From Candidatus Aminicenantes bacterium (GTDB lineage Bacteria > Acidobacteriota > Aminicenantia > Aminicenantales > UBA8522): a stretch of DNA of 64,000 bases. This document shows, in pieces, positions 2,563 through 43,549 of this stretch. The number at the start of each line of letters is the position of its first letter. Position 1 is the first letter of the stretch. The translations under genes were made by a program, and so were the position numbers. The stretch is from positions 57,346 through 121,345 of the forward strand of contig JAFNEO010000040.1 of assembly GCA_017886205.1 (NCBI GenBank), read 5' to 3'. The notes under the pieces were generated by a model. That model had not been told where the DNA came from and did not search any database. It saw only the letters and a program-made list of their open reading frames with translations.

Positions 2563-3619
2563 AGGCTTTCACGCGGTTCAGAGCGATGCGCCGGCCATCC
2601 TCGATCCCGGCGGCGATCCCGGCCCCCAAGGGGGCCAGGATTGTTCTTGCCTTTAGCGCCGCCGCTCCACCCAGGATGATCGGGATATCAGGAGTCCTTT
2701 CCCTGAGGCCTAAAATCAGTGAGCGCGCGGCGGGCAGGTGAGAGATCTGGCTCACAGAAAGGAAAACGACGTCCGGCCGGACGCTCATAACGGTCTCGAG
2801 AAGGTCCAGGTGAGGAGCTCCCCGGCCGATGAAGGCGACCGACCAGCCCTCGCTGGCCAGCAGATTGGACATCAGATCGATCCCGATGTCGTGTTCGTCG
2901 CCCGGCACGCACGCCAGGACTGCAGAAAAGGAAACAGCCTTCTTTCGGGGCAGGCTGTCGAAAATTCGATAAATGACGTAGCGGGTGATCTCGGTCGCGA
3001 GGTGCTCGGCGGCGGCGCTGATCTTGTTCCTCTCCCAGAAGACCCCGACCTGGCGCAGGGCCGGCATGAGGAGGCTGTCCGCGACTCTTGCCGGCGGAAA
3101 CCCGAGCTCGAGAAAGGTGAGGCCGAATTCAGCCGCCTCTCTTCGTTTATTCCTGAGGGCCAAATCGAAATACCTTTGCACATCTTCGGACGGCTTCTCA
3201 TCTTCATCGAGAGAAGGTCCAGGCAATCGCAGAACCAAATCCCGCGCCCGGATGAGCGGCCGGGAGAGTTCATCCGCCTCGGGAGGCTTGACCATTCCAT
3301 GGGTTGCGATCGTCCAGGCCTCCAAAATCCTCTCTCCCCATGCCTTTCCCAGGCCCCGGCTTTCCAGGACAGAGATGAGCCAGGACATCTCCTCCACCAG
3401 ATACTCAAACAGGCCAAATGAATAAACGGCCTTAAGGGTTTCGCCGAATCGCCTGTGGCAGTCCTCGAGCAGATCCTGCTGCCGGCGATCGAGTTTGCCG
3501 GTCTCCTTGCCTAGCTCCAAGCCGAGCCTCTCTTGGACCAGGGCCAGAATCCGCGGATAGAGCTTATCGAAAGCAGCCAGGGCCTGAGGGGTCAGCGGCT
3601 CGAAATCCATGACCTCCAT
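2555..3619 (-). CDS. Cobalamin (B12)-binding domain protein with an N-terminal helical domain. It has no recognisable HTH.
   Basis: The C-terminal domain carries the canonical B12-binding motif DEHDIGIDLMSNLLASEGWSV...GG (DxHxxG...SxL...GG). It overlaps the permease gene by 8 bp, which suggests co-transcription. Confidence 0.6.
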   Translation of the reverse strand: MEVMDFEPLTPQALAAFDKLYPRILALVQERLGLELGKETGKLDRRQQDLLEDCHRRFGETLKAVYSFGLFEYLVEEMSWLISVLESRGLGKAWGERILEAWTIATHGMVKPPEADELSRPLIRARDLVLRLPGPSLDEDEKPSEDVQRYFDLALRNKRREAAEFGLTFLELGFPPARVADSLLMPALRQVGVFWERNKISAAAEHLATEITRYVIYRIFDSLPRKKAVSFSAVLACVPGDEHDIGIDLMSNLLASEGWSVAFIGRGAPHLDLLETVMSVRPDVVFLSVSQISHLPAARSLILGLRERTPDIPIILGGAAALKARTILAPLGAGIAAGIEDGRRIALNRVKAYA

Positions 3620-3710
3620 TTTAGCAAAGCAGGGACCTTCTTTGAATAGACCAGGGAGACTTTATTTCGGCCGGAAAATGTGGCTAAATAAGGCTCAAAA
3701 AGGAGAAACC

Positions 3711-5804
3711 ATGATGATGAATGTTCGAATAAGATGGGTATTCACAGCGACATCACTTCTTTTCCTCCTATCAAGCGCCCGCTCCATCCTCGGCGATACG
3801 CCGAAGTTCCCAACAGTCCTTTACGGCGCGTCCTATTATCACGAGTATATGCCGTACGAAAGGCTGGAAAAGGACGTCGAGCTTATGGAAAAGGCGGGCA
3901 TCTCATTCGCCAGAGTGGGGGAATCCACTTGGGGTTTACTCGAGCCTCGGGACGGCGAGTTCGACTTCGCCTGGCTGGAACGGGTGATCGACCGCTTGCA
4001 CAAGGCGGGAATCAAGGTCATCCTCGGAACGCCGACCTATTCCATCCCAGCCTGGCTCTTCAAGAAGCACCCTGAGATCCAGGTCAAGCAGATCAACCAG
4101 CCCCGCTACACCTACGGGCTGCGCCAGATGACCGACCTGACTCATCCGACCTACAGGTTTTATGCCGAGCGGATCATCCGCAACGTGGTGGGGCATTTCA
4201 AGGACCATCCGGCCATCATCGGCTACCAGCTCGACAACGAGACCCACGCCTCGGGCACGGCGGACGCCCATGTTCAGTCGCTTTTTCGCGAGCACGTCAA
4301 GAAAAAGTTCAAGACCGCGGCGGAACTCAACAAGGCCTGGGGGCTGAATTACTGGGGACAAAATATCGCCGATTTCGACGAGTTGCCGCCGCGTGACGGC
4401 ATCCTCAACCCAGGCTACAAGCTCGAATGGGAAAGGTTCCAGCAGAATATTATCGCCGATTTCCTGGCCTGGCAGGCGGCGATCGTCAGGGAAATCAAGC
4501 GGCCCGACCAGTTTATCAGCCATGACTTTGTCGGGGGATTCCCGTCCGACGTCGATCAATACGAAACCGCTAAAGCTCTCGACATCCCGGCGGTGAATAT
4601 CTATATGGGACTCCAGGACCAGATGGACGGAGAGTTCATCGCCTATTGTGGAGATATCAACCGGTCGCTAAAGCAAGGGAACTACCTGGTGACCGAAACA
4701 ACGGCCCAGACAATAGGCTGGGACTCCAAGTCTCAGATCCCGCCTTATCCTGGGCAGCTCCGGCTCGCGGTCTATAGCAATATCGCATCGGGCGCCAACC
4801 TCGTGGCCTACTGGCACTGGCATTCGCTCCATTACGGCCAGGAAACCTACTGGAAAGGCGTCCTGGCGCATGACCTGGAGCCGGGAAGGGTTTATGATGA
4901 GGTGACAGAGATCGCCCGGGAGCTGAGGAAGTTCGGGCCGGAGCTGGCGAACCTCGAGAAGAAAAACAGGGTGGCAATTCTCTACAGCTTGGACTCCTGG
5001 CACGGACTAAATTTCATGCCTTTTGACGAGACGGTCAGCTACATGACCGTCCTGAACCAGCTCTATCGGGTCCTCTACAACCTCCATGTCGAGGTCGATT
5101 TTGTGTTCCCGCAGAGCCTGAACTTATCCGACTACCAACTCATCGTCGTGCCGCCGCTCTATATCGCGAGCGATGAGCTGCTCGATCGGCTGGCCGGCTA
5201 TGTCCGGGATGGTGGCCATCTCCTGGTGAGTTTTAAAAGCGGTTTTTGCAACGAGAATTCGACGGTAAGATGGACGATGGCGCCCGGGCCCCTGCGGGAG
5301 GCCGCGGGGTTCTATTATCAGGAATTCACTAACCTCAGATCGCCTCTTAAGCTCAAAGGCGATCCCTATGGAGTGGGGGAGGAGAACAAGGTCTCGGTCT
5401 GGGAGGAATACCTGATTCCGGAAAAAGCGAAAGCCCTGGCCTATTACGACCATCCTATCTTTGGACAATATCCCGCCATCATGCGGAATTCCTATGGGAA
5501 GGGAACGGTGACCTATGAGGGGACTTATCTTTCGGACAAGCTCCAGCAGAAAGTCGTCCTCGAGGCTCTGAACATCGCCGGAGTGGCGATAACAGATTCA
5601 ACGCTCCCCGCCGCCGTCAAAGCAAAGCATGGGGCCGTTCAGGACGGGAAGGCGGTCCACTTCTATTTCAATTTCTCTGCCAAGCCGCAGGAGTTCGTCT
5701 ATGTTTATGCGGATGGAACAGAGATGCTCTCCGGCAAGCCTACGGCAAAGTCCCAGAAGATGAATCTTTCGGCTTGGGACTTGGTGATTATCAGGGAAAA
5801 ATAG
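3711..5804 (+). CDS. Glycoside hydrolase family 42 beta-galactosidase with an N-terminal signal peptide
   Basis: GH42 hallmarks are present (FARVGESTWGLLEPRDGEFDF..., the IIGYQLDNE catalytic region, and a trimerisation and C-terminal beta domain). The RBS aaaaggag lies 8 nt upstream of the ATG at 3711, and the N-terminus MMMNVRIRWVFTATSLLFLLSSARS looks like a signal peptide. Confidence 0.8.
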   Translation: MMMNVRIRWVFTATSLLFLLSSARSILGDTPKFPTVLYGASYYHEYMPYERLEKDVELMEKAGISFARVGESTWGLLEPRDGEFDFAWLERVIDRLHKAGIKVILGTPTYSIPAWLFKKHPEIQVKQINQPRYTYGLRQMTDLTHPTYRFYAERIIRNVVGHFKDHPAIIGYQLDNETHASGTADAHVQSLFREHVKKKFKTAAELNKAWGLNYWGQNIADFDELPPRDGILNPGYKLEWERFQQNIIADFLAWQAAIVREIKRPDQFISHDFVGGFPSDVDQYETAKALDIPAVNIYMGLQDQMDGEFIAYCGDINRSLKQGNYLVTETTAQTIGWDSKSQIPPYPGQLRLAVYSNIASGANLVAYWHWHSLHYGQETYWKGVLAHDLEPGRVYDEVTEIARELRKFGPELANLEKKNRVAILYSLDSWHGLNFMPFDETVSYMTVLNQLYRVLYNLHVEVDFVFPQSLNLSDYQLIVVPPLYIASDELLDRLAGYVRDGGHLLVSFKSGFCNENSTVRWTMAPGPLREAAGFYYQEFTNLRSPLKLKGDPYGVGEENKVSVWEEYLIPEKAKALAYYDHPIFGQYPAIMRNSYGKGTVTYEGTYLSDKLQQKVVLEALNIAGVAITDSTLPAAVKAKHGAVQDGKAVHFYFNFSAKPQEFVYVYADGTEMLSGKPTAKSQKMNLSAWDLVIIREK

Positions 5805-5807
5805 GTT

Positions 5808-5953
5808 CTATTTTTCTTCGTCGACGATTCTATCACCCGGGATATCTTCTTCAATCGACTCGTCTTCAGGGTAGAGAAGCCTCGTCCCGCACTTGGTACA
5901 GAGCTCGCTCTTTTCATCGATAATCGCTTGGCAATAAGGACATTTTTTCAGCG
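5808..5953 (-). CDS. Small zinc-ribbon protein of 48 aa (MALKKCPYCQAIIDEKSELCTKCGTRL...)
   Basis: It has two CxxC pairs spaced like the N-terminal zinc ribbon of the kinases in this window. It is an intact ORF in the gap between GH42 and the sthA-like gene, but is not in the ORF track because it is shorter than 60 aa. Confidence 0.35.
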
Positions 5954-6018
5954 CCATACTTATATATTACTCTTCCTGGGCTCGATTTCCTAGGCCCCCA
6001 GATTAGAGATGGGGGCGG

Positions 6019-7428
6019 CTATTTGTTTTCCGCAGGGGTCCTTTGTTCGAATTTTTTCAGGGCATCGGCGGCGGCCTTGCCGAAGCCCTCCGAAACCGTA
6101 GGATGGTTGTAGACCATGTCCCTGATGTCCTCGACCCGGGCGCCGAGCTTGACCGCCAGCGCGGCGAAGTGGATGATCTCAGAGGCATCCTGGCCGGCGA
6201 CGTGGGCGCCGACGAGGCGGCGCGTCCCGCCGTCGAAGATGAGCTTGAAGAATCCGGTGACGTTCGCGTCGAGGCAGGAGCGGACGAGGTCGTTGTAGCC
6301 GCACTGGCCGATGACGATCTCGCCTCCCCCGGTTCGGGCCCACTCCTCGGTCAGGCCGACCGAACCGACCTCGGGGTCGGTATAGATACCCCAGGGAGCG
6401 CAGGTGTAATCCATTTTGACGTCTTGTCCCATGGCGTTCTCAGCCGCAATCCGGGCTTCGACGACGGCCATGGACGAGAGCATGAACCTCGCCAGGACAT
6501 CGCCAGCGGCATAGATGCCTGGCACGGAGGTCTGCATGCACTCGCTAACCTGAATCTCTCCCCGGGGTCCGGCCGGGATGCCGGCCGCCGCGAGGTTGAG
6601 CGCTTCCGTGTTCGGCCGGCGCCCCACGCTGACCATGATCCGGTCGGACTCAAACTCCTCGCCGCCGGTGAGAAGCGCTCGGACGCTCCCTTCGTCGGTG
6701 GTCTCGACTCGCTCGAGGCCGGTCCGGACGAGGAGCCGGATGCCCCGCTTTTTAAACTCCCGGGTGATCAGGGCGGCGACATCGTGGTCCTGGCCGAGCA
6801 GGGCCCGCTCCGCTTTCTCGACTACGACGACCTCGGAGCCAAGGGACCGGAAGATGAAGGCCATCTCGCAACCGATGACCCCGGCCCCGACGATGAGCAA
6901 GCGGCCGGGGACGGCATCCAAAGCCGTCAGGTCGTCCGGAGAGAGGATACTTCGGCGGTCAAAGGGAATTCCGGGGAGGGCGATGGGCCGCGAGCCCGTG
7001 GCGATAATCGTCCTGGGAGCAGCAAGCTCGCGGACCGTGCCGTCGGGGAGACGGACCTCGAGCGTCCGCGGCCCCTTGAACGAGGCCGTCCCCGTCAGGG
7101 TCTCGATGGAGTTCTTGCGGATCAGGGTGGCCAGGACGCCGAGCTCGCAAAGCGTTGTCTTGTGCCGACTGTCGAGGATTTTTCCGAAGTCGGCCCTGGC
7201 GCCTTCGACGACGGGGACGCCATAGCGCTTGCCCTTCTTCAGGTCCTCCAGGAAATGGGCCGCGTTGCTCAGGATCTTGCTGGGCAGGGTCCCCGTCTGG
7301 ACGCAGCCGCCGCCGAGCTCGGGCTCGCGGTTAAGCATGCAGACTTTGGCCCCGAGCTGGGTGCCCCGAAGGGAGGCGGAGATGCCCGCCTCGCCGCCGC
7401 CGATGACGATGAGGTCGTGTTCGTTCAT
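6019..7428 (-). CDS. sthA: Class I pyridine nucleotide-disulfide oxidoreductase-family flavoprotein, SthA/UdhA-like (soluble NAD(P) transhydrogenase-like). It has a single Cys in the redox motif.
   Basis: The FAD-binding GxGxxG is IVIGGGEAG. The redox motif reads GGGCVQTGTLPSK, with Thr replacing the second Cys as in the SthA motif GGGCTHWGTIPSK rather than the Lpd motif CLNVGC. The NAD site is VIGCEMAFIF, and a C-terminal HPTVSEG interface domain is present. Confidence 0.6.
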   Translation of the reverse strand: MNEHDLIVIGGGEAGISASLRGTQLGAKVCMLNREPELGGGCVQTGTLPSKILSNAAHFLEDLKKGKRYGVPVVEGARADFGKILDSRHKTTLCELGVLATLIRKNSIETLTGTASFKGPRTLEVRLPDGTVRELAAPRTIIATGSRPIALPGIPFDRRSILSPDDLTALDAVPGRLLIVGAGVIGCEMAFIFRSLGSEVVVVEKAERALLGQDHDVAALITREFKKRGIRLLVRTGLERVETTDEGSVRALLTGGEEFESDRIMVSVGRRPNTEALNLAAAGIPAGPRGEIQVSECMQTSVPGIYAAGDVLARFMLSSMAVVEARIAAENAMGQDVKMDYTCAPWGIYTDPEVGSVGLTEEWARTGGGEIVIGQCGYNDLVRSCLDANVTGFFKLIFDGGTRRLVGAHVAGQDASEIIHFAALAVKLGARVEDIRDMVYNHPTVSEGFGKAAADALKKFEQRTPAENK

Positions 7429-7607
7429 GTCTTTCCCTTTCTCAAGTTATCATGAGGGCAGCGCAAAGGCAAACACGGGACTTCGAGAGCGCCCGATATT
7501 CAATTTGGTGACAGGCACAAAATTCAAGAGAATTTCGAGCCTGTCACCGAATTTAATTAACGCCGTTCTTAATGTGCTATCCAAGAAAAGCTTACTATGA
7601 GGTTGGT

Positions 7608-7636
7608 TTGACTATAACCCGACTAATTGCTATTAT
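7608..7636 (+). promoter_or_regulatory. Candidate sigma-70-type promoter TTGACT-17-TATTAT
   Basis: It has a perfect -35/-10 pair with a 17 nt spacer, about 150 nt upstream of the 7789 CDS. Confidence 0.3.
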
Positions 7637-7788
7637 TTCCGCCGGCAAATTCAAACTTTTGGATTGGGGATATAGTGGGCCCTACAAAGAGGGATAGCGC
7701 TTCTCAAAGAAAAGAGAAGAAATCTCCCCCAGAAGGCTGGCTGCATCGGCACAAGACACTCGGTAAATCCGGCAAAGGGGGGTTTTTC

Positions 7789-8367
7789 ATGTCTCTGAAG
7801 TGGGTTGTACCATTTCTTTGCATCTTCTTGGCGTTTGACTGCGAAAAAAGGGGTTCGCTTGACCTGGACTATAACACCTTTGACCAGAGTCCCGGCACCG
7901 GGTGGCGGCAGCTGGCCGCCGATGGCCGCTTCCTCGATGCCGCCAACTTGATTGACAAGTACATTGAGAAGCACAGGGACCTGGACGAGTCGCAAATGAC
8001 GATTCTCCACTTTCATGCCGGGCAGATGTATGCCTTTGCCGACGACTACGAGACGGCCATCGAGCGTTTCGGCATGTCAACCTACCCCGAAGAGCCCCCC
8101 GATCTTCCTCTTCGCTGGAATGCTTACGTGCAGGCTACGATCGCATTTCTCAGCAAGGACCTGAAACGGCTCAAGGAGTGCCGCGAGGAGATAGTCGAGG
8201 GACCGACCGTCCAGGGGGAAAAGGCGAACCTGGACGTCGTGGATAGATTGATTGAACACTTCGACGAACCGTACTCCAAAGCCTATGGAGCCCGCCGAGG
8301 TCAAAACCCTCAGCCAAAGCCGCAAGCAAGCCAGCCTACCGGATCCGTAAGGTCGTCTGCACGCTGA
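7789..8367 (+). CDS. Hypothetical secreted protein
   Basis: The internal ATG at 7789 follows a G-rich RBS. The N-terminus MSLKWVVPFLCIFLAFDC is signal-like. No recognisable domain was found. Confidence 0.45.
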   Translation: MSLKWVVPFLCIFLAFDCEKRGSLDLDYNTFDQSPGTGWRQLAADGRFLDAANLIDKYIEKHRDLDESQMTILHFHAGQMYAFADDYETAIERFGMSTYPEEPPDLPLRWNAYVQATIAFLSKDLKRLKECREEIVEGPTVQGEKANLDVVDRLIEHFDEPYSKAYGARRGQNPQPKPQASQPTGSVRSSAR

Positions 8368-8541
8368 TAAGGACCGTCGAGCCGAGAGGCGAATACAAAT
8401 TCGGACCGGACGCCCGTCTTACCGTGGAAGGGCGCACGGCGGTTTGGATGTTCGGCAAGGACTGACGGCGTTCTGTAGCAATCCGGTTGACTCTTGTTCG
8501 TTTGCTTGATATTCTTTTCCCAAGGAGATAAGGGGAAGGCT

Positions 8542-11061
8542 GTGGCCACGAGGTGTCCTAAATGCGATTTTGATAATACTCCTGACTCCAAGTTCTGCAA
8601 AGAATGCGGGACACAGCTCCCGGCGATCCCGAAAGTTGCTGTCACCGAAACGCTTGAAACCTCAAAAGAGGAACTCACCACAGGTTCCACTTTTGCCGGA
8701 CGTTATCAGATTATCGAAGAGCTGGGCAGAGGCGGAATGGGAAAAGTTTACAGGGTCCTGGACAAGAAGCTCAACGAAGAAGTCGCGCTAAAGCTCATCA
8801 AACCAGAAATCGCTTCGGATAAGAGAACTCTGGAACGCTTCAGTAACGAACTCAAGATTGCCCGAAAAATCGTCAACAAGAACGTCGGCCGGATGTATCA
8901 CCTGAGCGAGGAGCAGGGGACCTATTACATCACCATGGAGTACGTCCCCGGTGAAAATCTCAAGAGCTCCATCCGGAGATTCGGACCGTTGCCCATAGGG
9001 AAGACCATCTTTCTGGCAGTGCAAATATGCGAAGGGCTGGCCGAAGCCCATAAATTGGGTATCGTGCACCGCGACCTTAAGCCGGGCAACATCATGATCG
9101 ACGAAGAGGGAAATGCCCGCATCATGGATTTTGGGATCGCCCGGTCGCTTAAGGAGAGGGGCATCACGGGAGAGGGTGTAATTATTGGCACGCCTGAGTA
9201 TATGTCACCTGAGCAGGTTGAGGGAAAAGACGTTGACCAGAAGTCGGACATCTATTCTCTAGGAGTGATTCTTTACGAGATGGCGACCGGACGTGTCCCT
9301 TTCAGCGGAGATACGCCCTTAAGCGTGGCGGTGAAGCAAAAGACAGAAGCACCTGCGGATCCACGCAAGCTCAATGCCCAGGTCCCTGAAAACCTCAGCC
9401 AAGTTATTCTGAAATGCCTAGAAAAGACCAGGGAGAAACGGTATCAAACCGCCGAAGAATTGCATTCAGAGCTATCCCGTCTAGAGGAAGAAATCCCAAC
9501 TGCAGAACGGGCTATACCAAAAAGAAAGTCGACCAGATTAAAAGAGAACGCCGCTCGAGTAGGCAAAGCCAAGTGGAAGAAGGTCGGTCTCTACGGAGGC
9601 GCAGTTATTCTCTTGGCCCTTATCGTTTATGCCGGGCTTCATCTATTCACTGGCCGCCAGGAGGGCATAGATTCGATCGCCGTGCTCCCCTTTGAAAATG
9701 TGAATGCCGACCCGAACACAGACTACCTTTGTGATGGGATCACCGAAACCATCATCAATAAGCTCTCGCAGTTGTCCAACGTGAAGAAGGTCATAGCACG
9801 AAACTCGGTCTTTACCTACAAGGGCAAAACCGTAGACCCCAAAAAAGTGGGCCAGGAACTTGGGGTCAAAGCGGTCTTATTGACCCGGATGGTTCGACTT
9901 GGAGATCGGCTGACCATAAGCCCGACTTTGGTCAGGACAAAGGACAACAGCCAGATCTGGGGGGAGAGGTACGACCAGAAGTTCGAAGACATATTTTCCA
10001 TAGAAGAGAAAATAGCGACCTCCATCGTTCAAGCGCTGCGGGTGAAGCTGACCAAGCAGGATCAGCAGAAACTCTCCGAGAGGCCCATTGACAATGCCGC
10101 GGCTTATGAGTTCTATCTTAAGGCTCATTCCGAGATCATGCGCTTCAAAGAGAATGCCTTAGATCGTATCGTCCAAGATCTTCAGAATGCCCTTGACATC
10201 ACCGGCCCTAATCCACTTCTTTATTCGGCTATGGCTGACGCTTATCGTCAATATGTCAATATCGGCGCCAGACAAGAGGATTATTTAGCAAGAGCTGAGG
10301 AATATGCCAAGAAGGCTTTGGCTATAGACCCAAATTTCTCCAAAGCCTATGTCGTCCTCGGGTATATCTATGAATATGGAAACCAGCAAGAGGGGATTCG
10401 CTATTTCAAGAAGGCACTGGCTGTGAATCCGAATGAACCATATGCCTTGCGAAGGCTTGCGCTGATCTATCAAGATGTCGGAAAGCCCTCGGCGGCACTT
10501 CCACTCCTGGCAAGATATAAGAAAGTCGATCCGTTGAATCCGGACAATTATCTTCTCCAAGGATACTCGCATTTCTATGATGGTCAATTCGGCCTTGCGC
10601 TTGACCCGTCCCGTAAACAGTATCAATCAGATCCCGAGAATCCGATTAAAGCATTCTTCTATGCCCATACCTTGGCTTACAACAAAGCGCTTGATGAAGC
10701 TTTCTCTATTATTGATAAATGCGCCAAGACGGATCCGAACAATGTCATCAGCAAGTTCGGACTTCTGCTGAAATATGGGCTGCAGAAAGACAAAGAAAAA
10801 GCGTTCCAAATCATGACTCCCGATTTCCGAAAAACATGTCAACGGGACGGGGAATGGTCATATTATGTTGCGGACGCGTTTGCCTTGCTCGATGAAAAGA
10901 AAGAAGCCTTGGATTGGCTGGAGAATGCGGTCAACCGAGGCATTATCAATTATCCCTTTATCAATACGTACGACTCCTTCCTCGCCAACATCCGCGGAGA
11001 GGAGCGGTTCAAGAAGCTCATGGAGCGGGTGAAATACGAATGGGAGCATTTTGAGGAATAA
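8542..11061 (+). CDS. Zinc-ribbon Ser/Thr protein kinase (type A) with a TM segment, a periplasmic TolB-N-like domain and TPR repeats
   Basis: It has an N-terminal CPKCx8FCxxCG ribbon and a Hanks kinase domain (GxGxxG, VALK, HRDLKPGN, DFG, TPEYMSPE). A TM helix is at about aa 365-385. The GTG start at 8542 follows the RBS aaggagataagg. Confidence 0.85.
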   Translation: MATRCPKCDFDNTPDSKFCKECGTQLPAIPKVAVTETLETSKEELTTGSTFAGRYQIIEELGRGGMGKVYRVLDKKLNEEVALKLIKPEIASDKRTLERFSNELKIARKIVNKNVGRMYHLSEEQGTYYITMEYVPGENLKSSIRRFGPLPIGKTIFLAVQICEGLAEAHKLGIVHRDLKPGNIMIDEEGNARIMDFGIARSLKERGITGEGVIIGTPEYMSPEQVEGKDVDQKSDIYSLGVILYEMATGRVPFSGDTPLSVAVKQKTEAPADPRKLNAQVPENLSQVILKCLEKTREKRYQTAEELHSELSRLEEEIPTAERAIPKRKSTRLKENAARVGKAKWKKVGLYGGAVILLALIVYAGLHLFTGRQEGIDSIAVLPFENVNADPNTDYLCDGITETIINKLSQLSNVKKVIARNSVFTYKGKTVDPKKVGQELGVKAVLLTRMVRLGDRLTISPTLVRTKDNSQIWGERYDQKFEDIFSIEEKIATSIVQALRVKLTKQDQQKLSERPIDNAAAYEFYLKAHSEIMRFKENALDRIVQDLQNALDITGPNPLLYSAMADAYRQYVNIGARQEDYLARAEEYAKKALAIDPNFSKAYVVLGYIYEYGNQQEGIRYFKKALAVNPNEPYALRRLALIYQDVGKPSAALPLLARYKKVDPLNPDNYLLQGYSHFYDGQFGLALDPSRKQYQSDPENPIKAFFYAHTLAYNKALDEAFSIIDKCAKTDPNNVISKFGLLLKYGLQKDKEKAFQIMTPDFRKTCQRDGEWSYYVADAFALLDEKKEALDWLENAVNRGIINYPFINTYDSFLANIRGEERFKKLMERVKYEWEHFEE

Positions 11062-11077
11062 AAAGGAGCCAGGGGTT

Positions 11078-13630
11078 ATGAAATGCCCGAAATGCCAAGC
11101 TGAGAACCCCGAGACCAAGCAGTTCTGCGCTGATTGCGGAACCCGAATTCGGGGACATGTTCCGGATTCTCCGGAATCCAGTACGTGTCCCCAGAATTCC
11201 AAGGATGTCCACCCAGAAGTTACAGAGACTCTTCAAACGCCCGTTCACGAGCTGACCACAGGCTCAACCTTCGCCGGCCGCTACCAGATCATTGAGGAAC
11301 TTGGCCATGGCGGCATGGGCAAGGTCTATAAGGTCTTCGACACCGATATCAAGGAGAAAATTGCCCTCAAGCTGTTGCGACCCGAGATCGCCCTGGACAG
11401 GGAAACCGTGGAGCGCTTCTCGAACGAGATGAAGCTTGCCCGCAAGATCAGCCACCGGAACGTCTGCCGCATGTTCGACCTGGGCAAGGCCGAGGGCACG
11501 ACTTTCATTACCATGGAATTCGTGCCGGGCGAAGACCTGAAGAAGTTCATCCGGAAGACGGGTCAGCTCGGGCCTGGCCGGGCCGTCTCGATCGCCAAGC
11601 AGGTCTGCGAGGGCTTGGCAGAAGCGCATCATCTCGGGGTTGTCCACCGGGACCTGAAGCCCCAGAACATCATGGTGGATGAGGACGGAAATGCCCGGAT
11701 CATGGATTTTGGGATCGCCCGGTCGCTCAAGGTGAAGGGGATCACCGGCGCCGGGGTGATGATCGGGACTCCGGAGTACATGTCGCCGGAACAGATTGAG
11801 GGTAAGGAAATCGACCAACGCTCGGACATCTATTCGCTGGGCATCATCCTCTTTGAAATGCTGACCGGCCGCGTGCCGTTTGAAGGAGATACGCCGTTCA
11901 CGATCGGCGTCAAGCACAAGAGTGAGCCGCCGCGGAATCCAAGGGAACTCAACGGGCAGATTCCCGAGGAACTCAGCCTCCTGATCCTGCGCTGCCTAGA
12001 AAAAGATAAAGAAAAGCGATATCAGACGGCAGCGGATATCATTTCCGACCTGGATAAGATCGAAACAGGCCTGCCCACCACCGATCTTGTCGTGCCCCGG
12101 AGAAAAACACTCACCTCGCGGGAGATTACCGTCAAGTTCAGCCTGAAAAAACTACTTTTCCCCGGTCTTGCTATTGGAGCGCTCGTCATCGCGGCAGGGA
12201 TCATTCTCTGGCGCGCTCTCCCCAAGAAAGAAGGCGTTTCCCCCAAATCCGGTCCCCCATCCATCGCCGTGCTGCCTTTTGTCGATGACAGCCCGGAGAA
12301 AGGCCATGGGTATCTGTGTGAGGGATTGCCAAATACACTCATCAATGCCTTGAACAATATCCAGAATCTTCGGGTTCCGGCCAGGACCTCGGCTTTTTCA
12401 TTCGTCGGCAAAGGCATCGATATCCAGGGAATCGGCCAGAAGTTGAACGTTGAAAATGTGCTCGAAGGGAGCATCCAGGTTGTTGGGAATAACCTTCGCG
12501 TCACAGCCAGCCTGATCAAAGTGAATGACGGCTACCAGCTCTGGAATGCGACCTATGATCGAAAACTGGAGGACGTCTTCGCGATCCAGGATGAAATTGC
12601 CCAAGCCATCGTCAAAGCCCTGAAGATAAGGCTTCTGGGCGAGCAAGAAGAACGGCTCGTCAAGCGCGACACGGAAAATATGGAAGCCTACAAGCTTTAT
12701 TTGGAAGGGCTCTATTACTGGAACAAGCGGACGGGAAAAGACCTGAACAGGGCGATCGAGCTGTTTAGTCAGGCCATCGATAAAGACCCCGATTATGCTA
12801 TGGCTTACGTCGGGCTGGCCGACTCCTATAGCTTGCTCACAGTCTACGCTGATGCACGCCCCCAAGACGTGTATCCTCGAGCTAAAGCGGCAGCGACCAA
12901 AGCTCTCGAGATCAATGAGGCTCTGGCCGAAGCTCACAATTCCCTGGCCTATATATACGACCGCTACGATTGGAACTGGAAAGCCGCCGAAGCCGAATTC
13001 AAGCGGGCCCTCGAGCTCAATCCCAACTATGCGACGGGCCACTTCTGGTATGGTGAGCACTTGGCGTTTTTCGGCCGCTTTGAGGAATCCATCCGGGAGA
13101 TGAAGCGGGCTCTGGCACTCGACCCGGTTTCGCTTGTCATCAACGCCAGCCTGGGCTGGGCCTATATCATGGCTCAGCAGTTTGATGAGGCAATCGCCCA
13201 GTTGCATAAAACGCTCGAATTGGACCCCCATTTTTATTATGCCCGCATCATGCTCGGGTTTGCGCACCTCGATAAGAAGAATTTTTCCGAAGCCATCGAT
13301 GAGATGAAGAAAGGCAGGGAGCTTTCAGGCGACGCCCTCATGATGGTTACTGGATTAGGAGAAGTGTATGCCACGGCCGGAAAACTCGAGGAGGCGAAGG
13401 GGATTCTCGAGGAACTGGAGGCGAGATCCAAACAACAATACATCTCGCCATTCGCGTTGGCCCACATTTATGTGGCTATGGGCGATCTTGACAAGGCCTT
13501 CGAGTTGGCGGACAAGGCTTATGAGGAAAGAGACGAGAACCTTATTTCAATCAAGATCCACCCCACTTGGACCGTTGTTCGCTCGGACCCACGGTATAAG
13601 GCGCTGTTGGAAAAGATGGGCTTGGACTAA
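11078..13630 (+). CDS. Zinc-ribbon Ser/Thr protein kinase (type B) with a TM segment and a long C-terminal TPR domain
   Basis: It has the same N-terminal ribbon and kinase motifs. The ATG at 11078 follows aaaaggagcc. The C-terminus carries many TPR repeats (NPNYATGHFWYGEHL...). Confidence 0.85.
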   Translation: MKCPKCQAENPETKQFCADCGTRIRGHVPDSPESSTCPQNSKDVHPEVTETLQTPVHELTTGSTFAGRYQIIEELGHGGMGKVYKVFDTDIKEKIALKLLRPEIALDRETVERFSNEMKLARKISHRNVCRMFDLGKAEGTTFITMEFVPGEDLKKFIRKTGQLGPGRAVSIAKQVCEGLAEAHHLGVVHRDLKPQNIMVDEDGNARIMDFGIARSLKVKGITGAGVMIGTPEYMSPEQIEGKEIDQRSDIYSLGIILFEMLTGRVPFEGDTPFTIGVKHKSEPPRNPRELNGQIPEELSLLILRCLEKDKEKRYQTAADIISDLDKIETGLPTTDLVVPRRKTLTSREITVKFSLKKLLFPGLAIGALVIAAGIILWRALPKKEGVSPKSGPPSIAVLPFVDDSPEKGHGYLCEGLPNTLINALNNIQNLRVPARTSAFSFVGKGIDIQGIGQKLNVENVLEGSIQVVGNNLRVTASLIKVNDGYQLWNATYDRKLEDVFAIQDEIAQAIVKALKIRLLGEQEERLVKRDTENMEAYKLYLEGLYYWNKRTGKDLNRAIELFSQAIDKDPDYAMAYVGLADSYSLLTVYADARPQDVYPRAKAAATKALEINEALAEAHNSLAYIYDRYDWNWKAAEAEFKRALELNPNYATGHFWYGEHLAFFGRFEESIREMKRALALDPVSLVINASLGWAYIMAQQFDEAIAQLHKTLELDPHFYYARIMLGFAHLDKKNFSEAIDEMKKGRELSGDALMMVTGLGEVYATAGKLEEAKGILEELEARSKQQYISPFALAHIYVAMGDLDKAFELADKAYEERDENLISIKIHPTWTVVRSDPRYKALLEKMGLD

Positions 13631-13642
13631 GGATAGAAATCC

Positions 13643-16177
13643 ATGAAATGCCCCAAGTGCCAGGCTGAGAATCCCGAGACCGTGAAATTCTGCGGGGAGT
13701 GCGGGACCCAGCTCGGGGGAGAGGGAATAGGGGGACATAAGGATATGCGCCCAGAGGTTACTAAAACTCTTCAAGCGCCTATCCAAAAACTGACCACCGG
13801 CTCAACCTTCGCGAACCGCTACCAGATCATTGAGGAACTTGGCAAGGGCGGGATGGGCAAGGTCTATAAAGTCTTCGACACCAAAATCAAAGAAAAGGTC
13901 GCCCTGAAGCTCATCCGGCCGGAGGTCGCCGCCGACAAGGACACGATCGAGCGCTTCTCGAACGAACTCCGGCTGGCCCGGAAGATCAGCCACCGCAATG
14001 TCTGCCGGATGTTCGACCTGGGGGAAGCGGAAGGCGCCCACTTCATCACCATGGAATATGTCGCCGGGCAGGACCTCAGGGGTCTCGTCCGGCAAACGGG
14101 CCGGCTCACGGCCGGGAAAGCGGTGTCGATTGCCAGGCAGGTCTGTGAGGGCCTGGAAGAAGCCCATAGGCTAGGAGTCATCCACCGCGACCTGAAGCCC
14201 GGGAACATCCTCATCGACAAGGACGGCAACGCCCGGATCATGGATTTCGGCATCGCCCGGTCGCTTGCGGGGAAGGGCATTACGGGCGCCGGAGTGATGA
14301 TCGGTACGCCCGAGTACATGAGCCCCGAGCAGGTCGACGGGACAGAGGTTGATCAGCGCTCGGATATCTATTCGCTGGGCGTTATACTTTATGAAATGGT
14401 GACAGGACGAGTTCCCTTTATCGGAGATACACCTTTGTCCGTGGCTGTGAAGCAAAAGACAGAAACCCCTCCAGACCCCAGCAAGCTCAATGCCCAGGTC
14501 CCGGAAAACCTTGGCCAGATTATTCTGAAATGCCTGGAAAAAGCCAAGGAGAAACGATTTCAGAGCGCCGAAGAATTGAAGGTTGAACTGACTCGCCTTG
14601 AGGAAGAGATCCCCACTGCGGAAAGGGTCATTCCCAAAAGGAAGCCCACCAAGTCAAGGAAGGTAGCCGTCGGGAAAGGCAAGATCCGGTGGGCTAAGAT
14701 TGCTCTTTGCGGCGGCGCGGCTATTCTTCTGGCCTTGATCGTCTATGCAGGCCTCTACCTAGTCTCCGGCCAAAAAGAGGTCATCGATTCGATCGCCGTT
14801 CTTCCTTTCGAGAACGTCAACGCCGACCCGGACACGGATTACCTCTGCGACGGGATCACCGAGACGATCATCAACAAGCTCTCGCAGCTGTCCAGTTTTA
14901 AAAAGGTCATTAACCGCACTTCGGTCTTCACATACAAAGGCAAAACTATTGACCCCAAGAGCGTGGGACAGGAACTTGGGGTCAGCGCGGTTTTATCAAC
15001 CCGGATGGTTCGACTTGGAGACCGTCTGACGATCAGCCCGACCCTAGTCCGAACCAAGGACAACAGCCAGCTTTGGGGGGAAAGGTACGACCGGAGGTTC
15101 GAGGACATCTTTTCCATCGAAGAGAATATCGCCACCTCCATCGTTCAAGCGCTGCGATTGAAGCTGACTGAGCAAGATCAGCAGAAAATCTCTGAGAGGC
15201 CCATCGAGAACGCATCGGCGTATGATTTATATCTCAGGGCGAATTCCGCGATCTGGAGCTTTAGGGAAGACGCCTTGGACCGTATCGTCCAGGATATTCA
15301 GAGAGCTCTTGATATCACCGGCGCCAATGCGCTTCTTTATACGGTTATGGCGAGCGCCTATTTTCAATACGTCAACATCGGCGCCAAACAAGAAGATTAC
15401 ATAGCGAAAGCGGAGGATTATGCGAACAAGGCTTTGGCAATGGATCCGAGCTTTTCTAAAGCCAATGTTGTCTTTGGGTACCTTTATCAGTACAGAAGCC
15501 AGAAAGAGGCCATCCGCTTTCTTAAGAAAGCCCTGGCCATAAATCCGAACGAATCGGATGCCCTGCGAGTACTCGTGTTTATTTACCAAGATGTTGGAAA
15601 GCCCTCGGCGGCACTTCCATTCATGGAGCGATTCAGGCAATCGGATCCGCTGAATTCTTACCATGATGTCCTTCAAGGATACTTCCGCTATTTTGACGGT
15701 CAGTTCAACTATGCGCTCGACGCCTTTCGCAAATCGTATCAGTCGAATCCGGAGAATCCGGTCAGAGGATTCGAGTATGCCCTTTTACTGGCCTATAACA
15801 AAGCATTCGATGAGGCCTTCTCAATCGTCGATCAAAGCGCCAGGGCGATTCCAAACAATGTCGGGACCAAGTTTGGGCTTTTGTTGAAATACGGGCTCCT
15901 GAAGAATAAAGAGAAAGCTTTTCAAATCATGACTCCCGATTTCAGAAAAACGTGTCGGCGCGATTTCGTTTGGTCATACTTTGTCGCACTTGGTTTCGCC
16001 TTGCTCGGCGAAAAGAATGAGGCTCTGGATTGGCTGGAGAACGCCGTCGACCGGGGCTTTATCAATTATCCCTTTATCAGCAAGCACGACACTTTCCTCG
16101 ACAACATCCGCGGCGAGGAGCGCTTCAAAAAGCTCATGGAGCGGGTGAAATACGAATGGGAGCATTTTGAGGAATAA
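13643..16177 (+). CDS. Zinc-ribbon Ser/Thr protein kinase (type A paralog)
   Basis: It is collinear with and clearly paralogous to the 8542-11061 kinase over the kinase, TolB-like and TPR regions. Confidence 0.85.
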   Translation: MKCPKCQAENPETVKFCGECGTQLGGEGIGGHKDMRPEVTKTLQAPIQKLTTGSTFANRYQIIEELGKGGMGKVYKVFDTKIKEKVALKLIRPEVAADKDTIERFSNELRLARKISHRNVCRMFDLGEAEGAHFITMEYVAGQDLRGLVRQTGRLTAGKAVSIARQVCEGLEEAHRLGVIHRDLKPGNILIDKDGNARIMDFGIARSLAGKGITGAGVMIGTPEYMSPEQVDGTEVDQRSDIYSLGVILYEMVTGRVPFIGDTPLSVAVKQKTETPPDPSKLNAQVPENLGQIILKCLEKAKEKRFQSAEELKVELTRLEEEIPTAERVIPKRKPTKSRKVAVGKGKIRWAKIALCGGAAILLALIVYAGLYLVSGQKEVIDSIAVLPFENVNADPDTDYLCDGITETIINKLSQLSSFKKVINRTSVFTYKGKTIDPKSVGQELGVSAVLSTRMVRLGDRLTISPTLVRTKDNSQLWGERYDRRFEDIFSIEENIATSIVQALRLKLTEQDQQKISERPIENASAYDLYLRANSAIWSFREDALDRIVQDIQRALDITGANALLYTVMASAYFQYVNIGAKQEDYIAKAEDYANKALAMDPSFSKANVVFGYLYQYRSQKEAIRFLKKALAINPNESDALRVLVFIYQDVGKPSAALPFMERFRQSDPLNSYHDVLQGYFRYFDGQFNYALDAFRKSYQSNPENPVRGFEYALLLAYNKAFDEAFSIVDQSARAIPNNVGTKFGLLLKYGLLKNKEKAFQIMTPDFRKTCRRDFVWSYFVALGFALLGEKNEALDWLENAVDRGFINYPFISKHDTFLDNIRGEERFKKLMERVKYEWEHFEE

Positions 16178-16193
16178 AAAGGAGCCAGGGGTT

Positions 16194-18707
16194 ATGAAAT
16201 GCCCGAAATGCCAAGCTGAGAATCCCGAGACCAAGCAGTTCTGCGCTGATTGCGGAACCCAGCTTATAAATTCCAAGGATGTCCACCCAGAAGTCACAGA
16301 GACTCTTCAAACGCCCATCCAAGAGCTGACCACAGGCTCAACCTTCGCCGGCCGCTACCAGATCATCGAAGAGCTGGGCAAAGGGGGGATGGGGAGGGTT
16401 TATAAAGTCGTCGACACCAAGATCAGGGAAAAGGTCGCCCTGAAACTCATCCGGCCGGAGGTCGCTTCCGACAGGGATACGATCGAGCGGTTCAGCAACG
16501 AGCTTCGCCTGGCCAGAAAGATCCGCCACAAGAACGTCTGCGGCATGTATGACTTGGGAGAGGCCGAAGGCTCACACTTCATCACCATGGAATATGTCCA
16601 CGGCGAGGACCTTAAAAGCATGATCCGCATGTCCGGCAGCCTGAGCCTGGGGATGCTCTTAAGCGTCGGGAAGCAGGTCTGCGAAGGCCTTTCCGAAGCG
16701 CACAACCTGGGCGTCGTCCACCGGGACCTGAAACCTCAAAACATCATGATCGACAAAAATGGGAACGCCAAGATCATGGACTTCGGGATCGCCCGGTCGC
16801 TTGCGGGAAAGGGGATTACGGGCGCCGGGGTGATGATCGGCACTCCGGAGTACATGAGCCCGGAGCAGGCCGAGGCGAAAGAGGTTGATCATCGCTCCGA
16901 CATCTATTCCCTGGGCGTCATCCTGTACGAAATGGCGACGAGCCGCGTGCCGTTCAAGGGGGAGACGGCGCTCAGCATAGCCATGAAACACAAGGGCGAG
17001 GCGCCGAAAGATCCCAAGCAGCTCAATCCCGGCCTGCCCGACGACCTCAGCGGCGTCATCCTGAAGTGCCTGGAGAAGGACAAGGCCAAACGGTACCAGA
17101 GCGCTGCCGATGTCCGCTCCGAGCTCGAAAAGATCGAAAAGGGGATTCCCACGGCTGAGCGGTTCGTTCCAGAGCGCAAACCCATCACCTCGCGGGAGAT
17201 CACAGTAACATTAAAATTGAAAAAACTCGTACTTCCCTTTTCAGCGGCACTCGCGGTTATCGTTATTGGGCTGATCGCCTGGCGGCTTATCCTTCCGAAA
17301 AAGGGCGCCGCGCCCCTCTCTCGCGTCCGGTCGATGGCCGTCATGCCGTTTGAGGACCTCAGCCCGCAGAAAGATCAGGGCTATCTGTGCGAGGGCCTGG
17401 CCGACGAGTTAATCACGAGGCTCATCGGCGTCGAGCAATTGAAAATCCCGGCGCGGGCCTCGGCTTTCCTGCTGAGGGGGAAGGGGCCGCAGGAGATCGG
17501 GCAGAAGCTCGCCGTGGATGCCGTCCTCGACGGAACACTCCTCAGAGCCGATCAAAAGCTCCATGTTAATATCCAGATCGTCGACGCCCGCAGCGGCTAC
17601 GGCCTCTGGTCCGGGAAATTCGACGGCGATGAAGAAGGCCTTTTCAACCTGCGTGACAAGATCGCCTTGAAGATTCTCGAAAGTCTGGAGGTCAAGCTGC
17701 TCGGAGAAGCGCGGACAAAGGTTGTAAAAAACTACACTTCGAATCCGGAGGCTTATAATCTCTATCTCCAGGGTCGCTATTTCTGGAATAAGCGGGCGCC
17801 GGATGACGTGAAGAGGGCCATCGATTACTTCAACCAGGCGATCGTCCTGGACCCGGATTTTGCCCTGGCCTATTCCGGGCTCGCCGATAGCTACCTCATC
17901 CTCCCTCAATTCCCGGAAATCCGGACGAGCGAGGTCTTACCCAAAGCCAAGGACGCCGCACGCAAAGCCCTGGTCCTTGATGACACGCTTGCCGAGGCAT
18001 ATGTCTCGCTGGCTAATATCAAACAATCGGAATGGGACTTGCCAGGCGCAGAAAACGATTATAAGCGAGCCATCGAGCTCAACCCGAATTACCCGACCGG
18101 TCACCTCTGGTATTCTAATCTATTGGCCATGATGGGCCGAATGGACGAGTCCCAGGCGGAGATGAGACGGGCTCTCGAACTGGATCCCCTCTCTCTCCTT
18201 TTTAACGTGGTCAAAGCACTGAATTATTTGCAGATCAGAGAATTCGATCAGGCCATCGAGCAAGCCCGCAAAGCGGTCGAGCTCGACCCGAACTTCGTTT
18301 GGAGCCGTTGGTCGCTTGGCGTGTGTTTCCGGGCCAAAGGCATGTTCAAGGAGGCGGTTGCCGAGCTTGAAAAAGCAAGGGAGTTCTTGGGAAGCAGTTC
18401 TTCCGGACTGGGAGACCTCGGAATGGCCTATGCGCTGTCCGGAGAAAAAGCCAAGGCCGCTGAGGTGCTTTCCCTTCTCGAGGAGCACCTGCAAAGAGGT
18501 TATCTTGTGAACGCCGAGATCGCCTCTGTCCATCTGGGCCTCGGCAACAAGGAGAAAGCCCTGGAGTATCTGGACAAGGCGGCTGAGGATGAAGATGAGG
18601 TCGCCTACCTTGATGATGCCAATACCTTCTTATATGACCCTCAGTGGGAAAGCCTCCGCCCGGACCCTCGTTTTAAGAAGTTGCTGAAGAAACTGCATCT
18701 GGAATAA
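16194..18707 (+). CDS. Zinc-ribbon Ser/Thr protein kinase (type B paralog)
   Basis: It is a paralog of the 11078-13630 kinase. The 130 bp spanning the preceding stop, the RBS and the first 22 codons is nearly identical to the sequence at 11015-11143. Confidence 0.85.
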   Translation: MKCPKCQAENPETKQFCADCGTQLINSKDVHPEVTETLQTPIQELTTGSTFAGRYQIIEELGKGGMGRVYKVVDTKIREKVALKLIRPEVASDRDTIERFSNELRLARKIRHKNVCGMYDLGEAEGSHFITMEYVHGEDLKSMIRMSGSLSLGMLLSVGKQVCEGLSEAHNLGVVHRDLKPQNIMIDKNGNAKIMDFGIARSLAGKGITGAGVMIGTPEYMSPEQAEAKEVDHRSDIYSLGVILYEMATSRVPFKGETALSIAMKHKGEAPKDPKQLNPGLPDDLSGVILKCLEKDKAKRYQSAADVRSELEKIEKGIPTAERFVPERKPITSREITVTLKLKKLVLPFSAALAVIVIGLIAWRLILPKKGAAPLSRVRSMAVMPFEDLSPQKDQGYLCEGLADELITRLIGVEQLKIPARASAFLLRGKGPQEIGQKLAVDAVLDGTLLRADQKLHVNIQIVDARSGYGLWSGKFDGDEEGLFNLRDKIALKILESLEVKLLGEARTKVVKNYTSNPEAYNLYLQGRYFWNKRAPDDVKRAIDYFNQAIVLDPDFALAYSGLADSYLILPQFPEIRTSEVLPKAKDAARKALVLDDTLAEAYVSLANIKQSEWDLPGAENDYKRAIELNPNYPTGHLWYSNLLAMMGRMDESQAEMRRALELDPLSLLFNVVKALNYLQIREFDQAIEQARKAVELDPNFVWSRWSLGVCFRAKGMFKEAVAELEKAREFLGSSSSGLGDLGMAYALSGEKAKAAEVLSLLEEHLQRGYLVNAEIASVHLGLGNKEKALEYLDKAAEDEDEVAYLDDANTFLYDPQWESLRPDPRFKKLLKKLHLE

Positions 18708-22525: not shown

Positions 22526-22659
22526 GAGATAAGGAGCCCGGTATGCACAAGGACCCAAAGAGCAGGAGAGGAGGGACTACCTGGAGTTCATCGCCCAGGT
22601 CACTTCATTATCTACACTATTTCTCCTCTTCGCTATCATAATATTCGCTCGACCTTTGC

Positions 22660-22850
22660 GCGCCCGTAGCTCAGCGGATAGAGCGGTGGACTTCGAATCA
22701 GAACGGGTGGATTTTTCTAACCTCCTGAAAACAAAGTAATAGTCAATCTTTCCAGCAAGTTACAGATTATCTCTAGGTATACAGAGGTATACGAAAGTCT
22801 ATGGAAGTATACCGGGGATGGTCACAATTTGGTCACAATTCTCATTTTGG
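22660..22850 (+). repeat. Truncated 5' copy of tRNA-Arg(TCG) (nt 1-40, with D-loop variant agCggata) plus a conserved ~150 bp arm. This is an attL-type remnant.
   Basis: The first 40 nt match the intact tRNA at 39460 up to the anticodon loop (cttcgaatc), then diverge into agaacgg.... The downstream 150 bp is about 93% identical to 32481-32630 and contains the direct repeats ggtatac (x3) and ggtcacaatt (x2). Confidence 0.8.
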
Positions 22851-32439: not shown

Positions 32440-32630
32440 GCGCCCGTAGCTCAGTGGATAGAGCGGTGGACTTCGAATCAGAACGGACTGATTTTCCTAA
32501 CCTCCTGAAAACAAAGTAATAGTCAATCTTTCCAGCAAGTTACAAATTATCTCTAGGTATACGGAAGTATACGAAAGTATATGGAAGTATACCGGGGATG
32601 GTCACAATTTGGTCACAATTACATAAGCCA
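32440..32630 (+). repeat. Second truncated 5' copy of tRNA-Arg(TCG) (nt 1-40) plus a conserved arm
   Basis: It matches the 22660-22850 repeat at about 93% identity. The tRNA portion is identical to the intact gene through cttcgaatc. Confidence 0.8.
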
Positions 32631-39459: not shown

Positions 39460-39532
39460 GCGCCCGTAGCTCAGTGGATAGAGCGGTGGACTTCGAATCC
39501 AAAGGTCGGGGGTTCAAATCCCTCCGGGCGCG
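39460..39532 (+). tRNA. tRNA-Arg, anticodon TCG (intact, 73 nt, CCA not encoded)
   Basis: The cloverleaf has the acceptor stem GCGCCCG/CGGGCGC, D arm GCTC-AGTGGATA-GAGC, anticodon loop CTTCGAA, a 5 nt variable loop, and T arm GGGGG-TTCAAAT-CCCTC. Confidence 0.85.
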
Positions 39533-39580
39533 CTCCCATATTCCCCATATAAACCCCCTTATAATCAGCATTTTGCCGAG

Positions 39581-39641
39581 TCCGTGATTTTACCCGATTT
39601 TCCGTGATTTTCCGCTTTAGGGTGGAGCCAAAGTGGAGCCA
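39581..39641 (+). promoter_or_regulatory. Putative integrase arm-type sites: the direct repeats tccgtgatttt (x2) and GGTGGAGCCAAAGTGGAGCCA
   Basis: The 21-mer at 39621-39641 recurs exactly at 54781-54801, 60 bp upstream of the att core at the other end of the element (inside the 3' end of the integrase gene). Confidence 0.45.
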
Positions 39642-39746
39642 AGTTTGGAAAATCTTATCGGAATAGTAGGGTTTAGAAACGATGACTCAAGTTGACATCC
39701 ACGCTGTTTTTATAGAAAAATATAGACTGAAACAGGAGATTGAAAG

Positions 39747-39935
39747 ATGAGCGAATTCCAACCGGGCATGGTCGTTCAATTAAAATCAGGTGGTCCCAGA
39801 ATGACCGTGAGGAGAATTGGTAGTGGAAACGTAGGCGGTGAAAACGATATCGATTGTGAATGGTTCTCCGGCGGCAAAGTTATAACGAAGAGTTTTAAGC
39901 CAGAGGTGCTTAAGGTTTTGGAAGGCCAAGAATAG
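39747..39935 (+). CDS. Small DUF2158/YodC-like protein (62 aa)
   Basis: The pattern GMVVQLKSGGPRMTV...CEWFSGGK is typical of the YodC family. The RBS caggagattgaaag is present. Confidence 0.4.
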   Translation: MSEFQPGMVVQLKSGGPRMTVRRIGSGNVGGENDIDCEWFSGGKVITKSFKPEVLKVLEGQE

Positions 39936-39961
39936 GATAAATTCCCTCCTGATCTGGTCGG

Positions 39962-40769: not shown

Positions 40770-40795
40770 TTTCTCCCCTTTTTATTTAGACTTTT

Positions 40796-41693: not shown

Positions 41694-41699
41694 TATCAT

Positions 41700-43521: not shown

Positions 43522-43549
43522 AAGGACCCCAATATTCTCATCTTACTTT

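Follow-up and report, generated by a model that had tools for sequence, protein, structure and literature searches.

How do genes that have diverged along most of their length come to share a short, almost identical stretch? The question is raised by a 64,000-nucleotide stretch of DNA (hereafter the window) from a Candidatus Aminicenantes bacterium (NCBI contig JAFNEO010000040.1, positions 57,346 to 121,345), the nearest genomes to which are Candidatus Aminicenantes metagenome-assembled genomes (MAGs), and in which four co-oriented open reading frames (ORFs), termed A1, B1, A2 and B2, occupy the region from 8.5 to 18.7 kb with gaps of 16, 12 and 16 nt between them. All four encode kinases of a single family, a correction to an initial annotation of the locus, and their overall nucleotide identity amounts to 74% between A1 and A2, 63% between B1 and B2, and 51–53% between the A and B genes. 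The near-identical tract that the same annotation had pointed out in these diverged paralogs is indeed present at the two A-B junctions, comprising 131 nt with one mismatch in genes that are 60–74% identical, and very probably goes back to a recent exchange, by gene conversion or ectopic recombination, between tandem kinase paralogs of ancient origin.

Extent and affinities of the homogenised tract

The core of the tract lies on the forward strand at positions 11014–11144, where it comprises the last 16 codons of A1, the TAA stop codon, a 16-nt spacer with an AAGGAG motif and the first 22 codons of B1, and again at 16130–16260, where it comprises the end of A2, the spacer and the start of B2. 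Over these 131 nt, both direct comparison and alignment of the whole units recover just one mismatch (11107/16223); without interruption the two copies match for at most 93 nt (11014–11106 and 16130–16222), and the 16-nt spacer is identical at both junctions. As had been described earlier, the core is followed by an indel in the linker, after which the copies realign: 50 nt in B1 (11145–11194, RIRGHVPDSPESSTCPQ) stand against 8 nt in B2 (16261–16268, QLI), a net in-frame difference of 42 nt, and the ensuing segments, 11195–11292 and 16269–16366, differ at 4 of 98 positions (96% identity) and run as far as the conserved ELTTGSTFAGRYQ motif, where the kinase domain starts. From about position 11293 onwards the B1/B2 alignment contains a mismatch at nearly every third base, and the 3' boundary of the conversion is at approximately 11292, at the ELTTGSTFAGRYQ motif. 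In the other direction the tract possibly extends into A1 over 10978–11013 (5 mismatches in the 167 nt of 10978–11144), a segment in which conversion cannot be separated from the similarity that the 3' ends of A genes show between species. On the whole, the homogenised tract measures about 280–315 nt, from 10978 or 11014 to 11292, such that the previously proposed size of ~130 bp describes the core well and falls short of the full length, which is ~280 nt or more.

Chance can be excluded as the source of this similarity because, in 2000 column shuffles, the longest runs containing no more than one mismatch had a mean length of 26 nt and did not exceed 42 nt, and because an 85%-identity Bernoulli model yielded a maximum of 109 nt, as against the 131 nt observed.

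The affinities of the tract were assessed by contrasting a module, defined as the first 56 aligned codons (168 nt) of the B genes, with the rest of these genes in the window and in related loci. One such locus, L002 (CAYGXD010000030.1), is syntenic with the array, being preceded by a GH42 gene and followed by an amidohydrolase gene, and holds a single A-B2 pair whose B gene is 81% identical to B2 and 60% to B1 at the nucleotide level. A second, L084 (Ga0315288_10006468), was the sole match when metagenome contigs were searched with a degenerate DNA pattern joining the A 3' end, the spacer and the start of the Zn ribbon, a search which did not return the source contig itself; it holds an A gene, then a B gene 78% identical to B1 and 60% to B2, and lastly a truncated third gene. 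Outside the module, B1 is thus 78% identical to its L084 counterpart and B2 81% identical to that of L002, whereas B1 and B2 are 59.8% identical to each other (42% at third positions). The identity matrix of the kinase part likewise yields two groups, one uniting B2 with the B gene of L002 and L090_3, and the other uniting B1 with the B gene of L084. As each has an ortholog of its own (78–81% identity) while being ~60% identical to the other, B1 and B2 are ancient paralogs that predate the separation of the compared species.

Within the module these relationships are reversed. B1 and B2 are 93.5% identical, with 89% identity at third positions, whereas B1 is 61% identical to the B gene of L084 and both B1 and B2 are 67% identical to that of L002; the overall range to these orthologs is 61–68%, with 41–43% identity at third positions. 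Identity to L090_3 is 80–83%. The switch from paralog to ortholog affinity takes place at codons 60–75 of the B genes. Such a phylogenetic incongruence, extending to synonymous and non-coding sites, is the hallmark of gene conversion or ectopic homologous recombination, and the homogenisation of these very sites is not explained by selection at the protein level. The earlier suggestion of a recent recombination or conversion event is therefore borne out: paralogs are closer than orthologs only inside the tract and orthologs closer than paralogs outside it, with third-position identity dropping from 89% to 42%.

Proposed mechanism of transfer and competing explanations

In the scenario proposed here, a long-standing array of four receptor Ser/Thr kinase paralogs, which are co-oriented and probably co-transcribed, would have undergone a recent non-reciprocal homologous recombination, through which one A-B junction received about 280–315 nt from the other. 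The transferred sequence would have run from the conserved 3' end of the A gene across the stop codon, spacer and ribosome-binding site (RBS), through the Zn-ribbon and linker module of the B gene, to the ELTTGSTFAGRYQ motif. Both of its ends fall in stretches that are selectively conserved among the paralogs, which may have supplied the homology for strand invasion and resolution. Subsequently, 42 nt of the linker would have been deleted from B2, or would not have reached it in the first place. The linker insert of B1 (HVPDSPES...) also occurs in homologous modules of other species (gene 3 of both L084 and L090, L080_k1 and L089_A); it is therefore ancestral to this module type, and the 42-nt difference most likely represents a deletion in B2.

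Several observations weigh against this scenario or blur its details. The hints as to donor and recipient conflict and leave the direction ambiguous: the shared spacer matches the A-B1 spacer of L084 at 24 of 28 positions and the A-B2 spacer of L002 at 20 of 28, while L090 has this module type in its B2 ortholog as well, with the 80% identity expected under vertical descent. The part of the tract internal to the A gene is also conserved between species. Its last ~25 codons (NIRGEERFKKLMERVKYEWEHFEE, window 10990–11061) are 71–92% identical in every A-type pair compared, including species that lack a following B gene, and their third positions too are unusually conserved (L002, L003, L072, L080, L082, L084 and L090). 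Codon constraint, a feature of the mRNA 3' end and a functional C-terminal peptide are candidate causes of this conservation, because of which the left edge of the tract appears partly to reflect selection, making the 5' boundary and the share of conversion in it uncertain. Furthermore, some Zn ribbons are 85–89% identical between genomes, pointing to a module that is intrinsically well conserved and in which short windows have a high variance. Finally, the check for an assembly artefact draws on assembled contigs and exact protein identity.

The alternative that fares best, while still being improbable, is that nucleotide-level purifying selection on a junction element has kept both copies alike with no exchange between them, the selected entity being the context for translational coupling or the RBS, a leader or regulatory RNA, or an invariant N-terminal peptide. 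The conservation of the A 3' end and the high identity of certain Zn ribbons would both be in keeping with such constraint. Nevertheless, an element held constant in this manner would hardly have a spacer that differs at 8 of 28 positions in the A-B2 pair of L002, modules in the B genes of L002 and L084 just 61–67% identical to those of the window, and third positions conserved to 89% between B1 and B2 as opposed to 41–43% with their orthologs. An RNA element at the junction was considered and rejected, given that the predicted fold of 10990–11150 is no better than that of shuffled sequences (z = +0.56) and that Rfam yielded no family in the array, its matches being just two tRNAs elsewhere in the window. 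As the sole cause, purifying selection is largely refuted by the ortholog comparison.

It is very unlikely that the tract is instead the last unchanged remnant of a recent tandem duplication of an entire A-B unit, of which the remainder has diverged rapidly or been overwritten. The alternating A-B-A-B order, the 16-nt spacing at both A-B junctions and the visibly mosaic nature of the family are what such a history might leave. However, B1 and B2 have separate orthologs at 78–81% nucleotide identity, a mutual identity of ~60% and saturated third positions; the divergence of the two halves of the unit is unequal (74% for A1/A2, 63% for B1/B2); and overwriting ~95% of both genes would be far less parsimonious than one short conversion. 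For the same reason of separate B1 and B2 orthologs, a tandem duplication of the A-B pair, as assumed in the initial annotation, would at best be very old rather than recent.

The assembly of the locus could be compared across several samples. The 121-kb contig Ga0494780_000029 of JGI metagenome 3300047198 is, when reversed, identical to the window. Junction 1 and its unique flanks are spanned by a contig from the sibling sample 3300047197 (L086; 99.97% identical to window 3148–13637) and by another from sample 3300047200 (L087; 100% identical to window 8429–11635), so that three samples gave the same assembly of this region. Four contigs encode exactly the B1 protein. The two halves of junction 2 lie in A2 and B2, whose exact proteins are each found on three contigs of the 50–200 kb class; a 124.5-kb NCBI contig contains A1 and A2, and B1 and B2 are also present in NCBI. 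For junction 2, the support from other assemblies is by exact protein identity. Hence, a chimeric or collapsed metagenomic repeat that created the tract or mis-joined its flanks, which might be suspected from the metagenomic source, from the sibling contigs ending in or near the repeated 5' regions (L086 at 13637, L087 at 11635) and from a 93-nt exact repeat that could exceed some k-mer sizes, is scarcely credible in view of the same sequence in independent assemblies, the unexpectedness of a graded continuation at 96% beyond an in-frame indel in an artefact, and the recurrence of the pattern in other species, on long contigs as well as complete chromosomes.

Recurrence of 5' homogenisation and mosaicism in the kinase family

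Among the fetched loci, ten further pairs of neighbouring kinase genes (in L070, L075, L069, L080, L021, L003, L007, L024, L005 and L002) possess 5' tracts of 80–100% identity, which start between -200 and 0 and end at about +170 to +250 nt relative to the first Cys codon. The kinase domains of these pairs are 67–82% identical and their C-terminal regions 55–68%, and several of them reside in long contigs or complete chromosomes (L075, L005 and L007). Apart from the window, at least nine Aminicenantes genomes show homogenised 5' tracts of this kind. An unbiased scan using 72-nt windows gave a concordant picture: of 121 within-genome pairs, 8 reached an identity of 90% or more in the Zn-ribbon window, as against 0.02% of 6299 between-genome pairs, whereas each window of the kinase domain reached this level in 0–2 of the 121. 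When the upstream 40 nt were additionally required to match, the proportions were 4.0% within genomes and 0.02% between them. The within-genome enrichment is about 30-fold. Taken together, the event in the window is one case of a recurrent, 5'-biased homogenisation in the Aminicenantes kinase family, in which neighbouring paralogs of many genomes exchange the 5' leader and Zn-ribbon module and remain divergent in their kinase and sensor parts. Selection is likely to have removed conversions that extended into the parts bearing specificity; the bias could alternatively stem from a recombination hotspot or from selection for shared modules.

At least three module types coexist in the window, one shared by B1 and B2, a second in A2, and a third common to A1 and K5, a fifth paralog situated downstream of the array, which argues against a genome-wide uniformity maintained by selection. 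Orthologs in different species carry different 5' modules, and identity profiles depict the A family as a patchwork across species. A tentative and rather doubtful extension of these observations is that the 5' leader, Zn ribbon and linker constitute an exchangeable unit, copied between paralogs and reassorted against the kinase and sensor body, which is perhaps selectively favoured, for example through a shared cytoplasmic partner or regulatory input. If this were true, the unit would be a bacterial counterpart of the concerted evolution of single domains in receptor-kinase and NLR clusters of plants, going beyond neutral, filtered conversion.

Mosaicism is also apparent in individual genes. 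A2 is chimeric with respect to A1: across window 13643–14400, its Zn ribbon, linker and early kinase domain are 77–92% identical to B1 and B2 and 56–68% to A1. Over its first 500–750 nt the corresponding values are about 78% and about 56–68%, and from about 14150 onwards it is of the A type, its C-terminal two thirds being about 75–89% identical to A1 at the nucleotide level. The Zn ribbon of A1, for its part, resembles that of K5 (74%). In L002, the N-terminal modules of the A gene (10001–10200) and the B gene (12537–12740) are ~80–90% alike and unlike either window ortholog, which is an independent homogenisation event in another species. An interpretation of L002 as a simple A1/A2 hybrid produced by unequal crossover was considered and is not supported, its identity profile being patchy rather than of two blocks.

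In the initial annotation, unequal crossover was inferred to be a ready possibility in the array. This is plausible given that the number of genes varies among relatives, as illustrated by the syntenic locus of L002 with two genes in place of the four in the window; no copy-number variation was seen to back it among the three or more sampled assemblies of the population, all of which are identical. In L084, the A and B1 genes are accompanied by a 220-aa remnant, which on the minus strand (8222–8884) consists of a B1-type Zn ribbon, the linker and the first ~45 kinase residues joined directly to a juxtamembrane and transmembrane (TM) segment, and is followed by a second, orphan MKCPKCHFDN... 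Zn-ribbon start. This remnant testifies that, in a relative, deletions have occurred between paralogous kinase genes.

The kinase array, its surroundings and parallels with known systems

The four proteins of the array are unified by an N-terminal Cys4 zinc ribbon, a linker of 30–45 aa, a Hanks-type kinase domain that matches Pfam Pkinase at 1e-57 to 1e-59, a single hydrophobic helix and a C-terminal half rich in TPRs; the differences between A and B lie mainly downstream of the kinase domain. All genes are on the forward strand. A1 (8542–11061), a receptor-type Ser/Thr kinase of 839 aa, has a GTG start according to JGI and is supported by the ORF, by Pfam and by gene calls in L001 and L085; it displays the Zn ribbon, the kinase domain (Pfam Pkinase, 1.6e-58), a DZR match, one TM helix and the TPR-rich C-terminal region of type A. 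B1 (11078–13630) encodes a paralogous kinase of 850 aa with a type-B C-terminal region, and its ortholog in L084 is 78% identical outside the 5' module. A2 (13643–16177) encodes 844 aa in the NCBI call, which starts at ATG 13643, JGI calling a shorter form. B2 (16194–18707) encodes 837 aa, again with a type-B C-terminal region, and has orthologs in L002 (81% outside the module) and in L090 (80% in the kinase part). K5 (25936–28689), which lies 7 kb downstream of the array and encodes 917 aa with an A1-like Zn ribbon, belongs to the same family and is a possible further recombination partner for the array genes. ORFs with TTG starts at 11051 and 16167 overlap the upstream stop codons and are mechanical calls; the true starts of B1 and B2 are the ATG codons of MKCPKC, just preceded by the AAGGAG motif, an RBS located solely upstream of these two genes. 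A sigma-70-like promoter match lies just upstream of A1 (8487–8515, forward strand), no terminator-like site was found on the forward strand at the three gene junctions, and three such matches (12372, 14707 and 15320) fall inside B1 and A2. The four genes probably form one operon.

The G-loop, the VAIK lysine of strand β3, and the HRDLKPxN, DFG and TPEY (APE-like) motifs are found in all five paralogs, and the best PDB relatives of the kinase domain are PknB and StkP, with E-values of about 1e-60 to 1e-62. By these sequence features the array genes can be classified as Hanks-type Ser/Thr kinases with predicted phosphotransfer activity. The predicted layout comprises a cytoplasmic Zn ribbon and linker, a PknB-like kinase domain, one TM helix and an extracytoplasmic TPR region; for the C-terminal regions, comparison with PDB sequences produced generic TPR proteins alone and no clue to a ligand. 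An analogy with the rubredoxin-kinase-TPR arrangement of PknG was set aside, as the best PDB matches listed are PknB, StkP, PknA and PknE, with PknG absent among the 60 best listed. PknB and PknA of M. tuberculosis and StkP of S. pneumoniae share with the array proteins the kinase fold and all catalytic motifs, as well as a single TM helix downstream of the kinase and, beyond it, a repeat domain outside the cytoplasm. Unlike PknB and StkP, which have PASTA repeats, the array kinases possess a TPR-rich outer region (labelled 'TolB-like' by JGI) and the N-terminal Cys4 zinc ribbon, and the Aminicenantes kinase genes are present in many tandem copies per genome.

Elsewhere in the window, the region 39460–54906 looks like a ~15.4-kb integrative element inserted in a tRNA gene. 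It is bounded by a tRNA-Arg(TCG) gene (39460–39533), whose last 46 nt are repeated exactly at 54861–54906, and encloses a gene for a tyrosine integrase just inside the distal repeat (53722–54846) and one for an AAA_25 protein (41932–43521). The GC content falls to 0.37 at 40–42 kb, and the GC skew is strongly positive over 44–54 kb. A direct repeat of 145 nt with 90% identity (54875–55019 and 56097–56240) lies just outside the distal att-like repeat of this putative element. A further direct repeat, of 181 nt with 95% identity (22656–22840 and 32440–32620), begins with ~40 nt equal to the 5' half of the gene for tRNA-Arg at 39460, and its copies flank ~10 kb that include an outer-membrane protein gene and K5.

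The locus offers a clean, well-controlled example of partial gene conversion from an uncultured phylum, and shows that mosaic evolution is at work in the receptor-kinase families of Aminicenantes, which are large. Kinase trees and orthology calls are consequently unreliable unless the 5' module is handled separately; short-read assemblies tend to break at such tracts, as they did in the sibling samples; and gene number at the locus varies between related species. The mechanism is well known and the kinase family a new instance of it, the 5'-module bias being the sole mildly novel aspect; the case opens no new mechanism and settles no open question. A literature search found nothing joining 'Aminicenantes' and 'threonine kinase', and to our knowledge gene conversion in Aminicenantes receptor kinases has not previously been described.

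Conversion between bacterial paralogs is exemplified by tufA/tufB and the rRNA operons. Concerted evolution by gene conversion between prokaryotic paralogs has been surveyed (PMC6053082) and gene conversion reported for antigen and PE/PPE-type loci of M. tuberculosis (PMC13061034, PMC12046097), and the kinase array resembles such systems in the excess of paralog over ortholog similarity along a delimited tract, the homogenised synonymous sites, the conserved bounds and the recurrence in independent lineages. The difference is that here only the ~0.3-kb 5' module of a 2.5-kb gene is homogenised, while the catalytic and sensor parts stay 55–75% identical. With pilE/pilS of Neisseria and vlsE of Borrelia the array would share the non-reciprocal copying of short segments among homologous sequences that lie in tandem. 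Unlike pilE/pilS, it has no silent, promoterless donor cassettes, all four genes being full-length with a start codon and all catalytic motifs; no dedicated initiation element for cassette recombination was found in the array; and the part exchanged is predicted to be cytoplasmic, in contrast to the surface-exposed parts exchanged in pilE/pilS and vlsE. In H. pylori, the near-identical ends of outer-membrane protein paralogs of the babA/babB/sabA type mediate RecA-dependent conversion, giving rise to chimeric genes and to copy-number differences between strains. There, identical ends serve to swap a variable middle and thereby switch adhesins, an effect that is clearly adaptive, whereas in the Aminicenantes kinases it would be the 5' end itself that is swapped.

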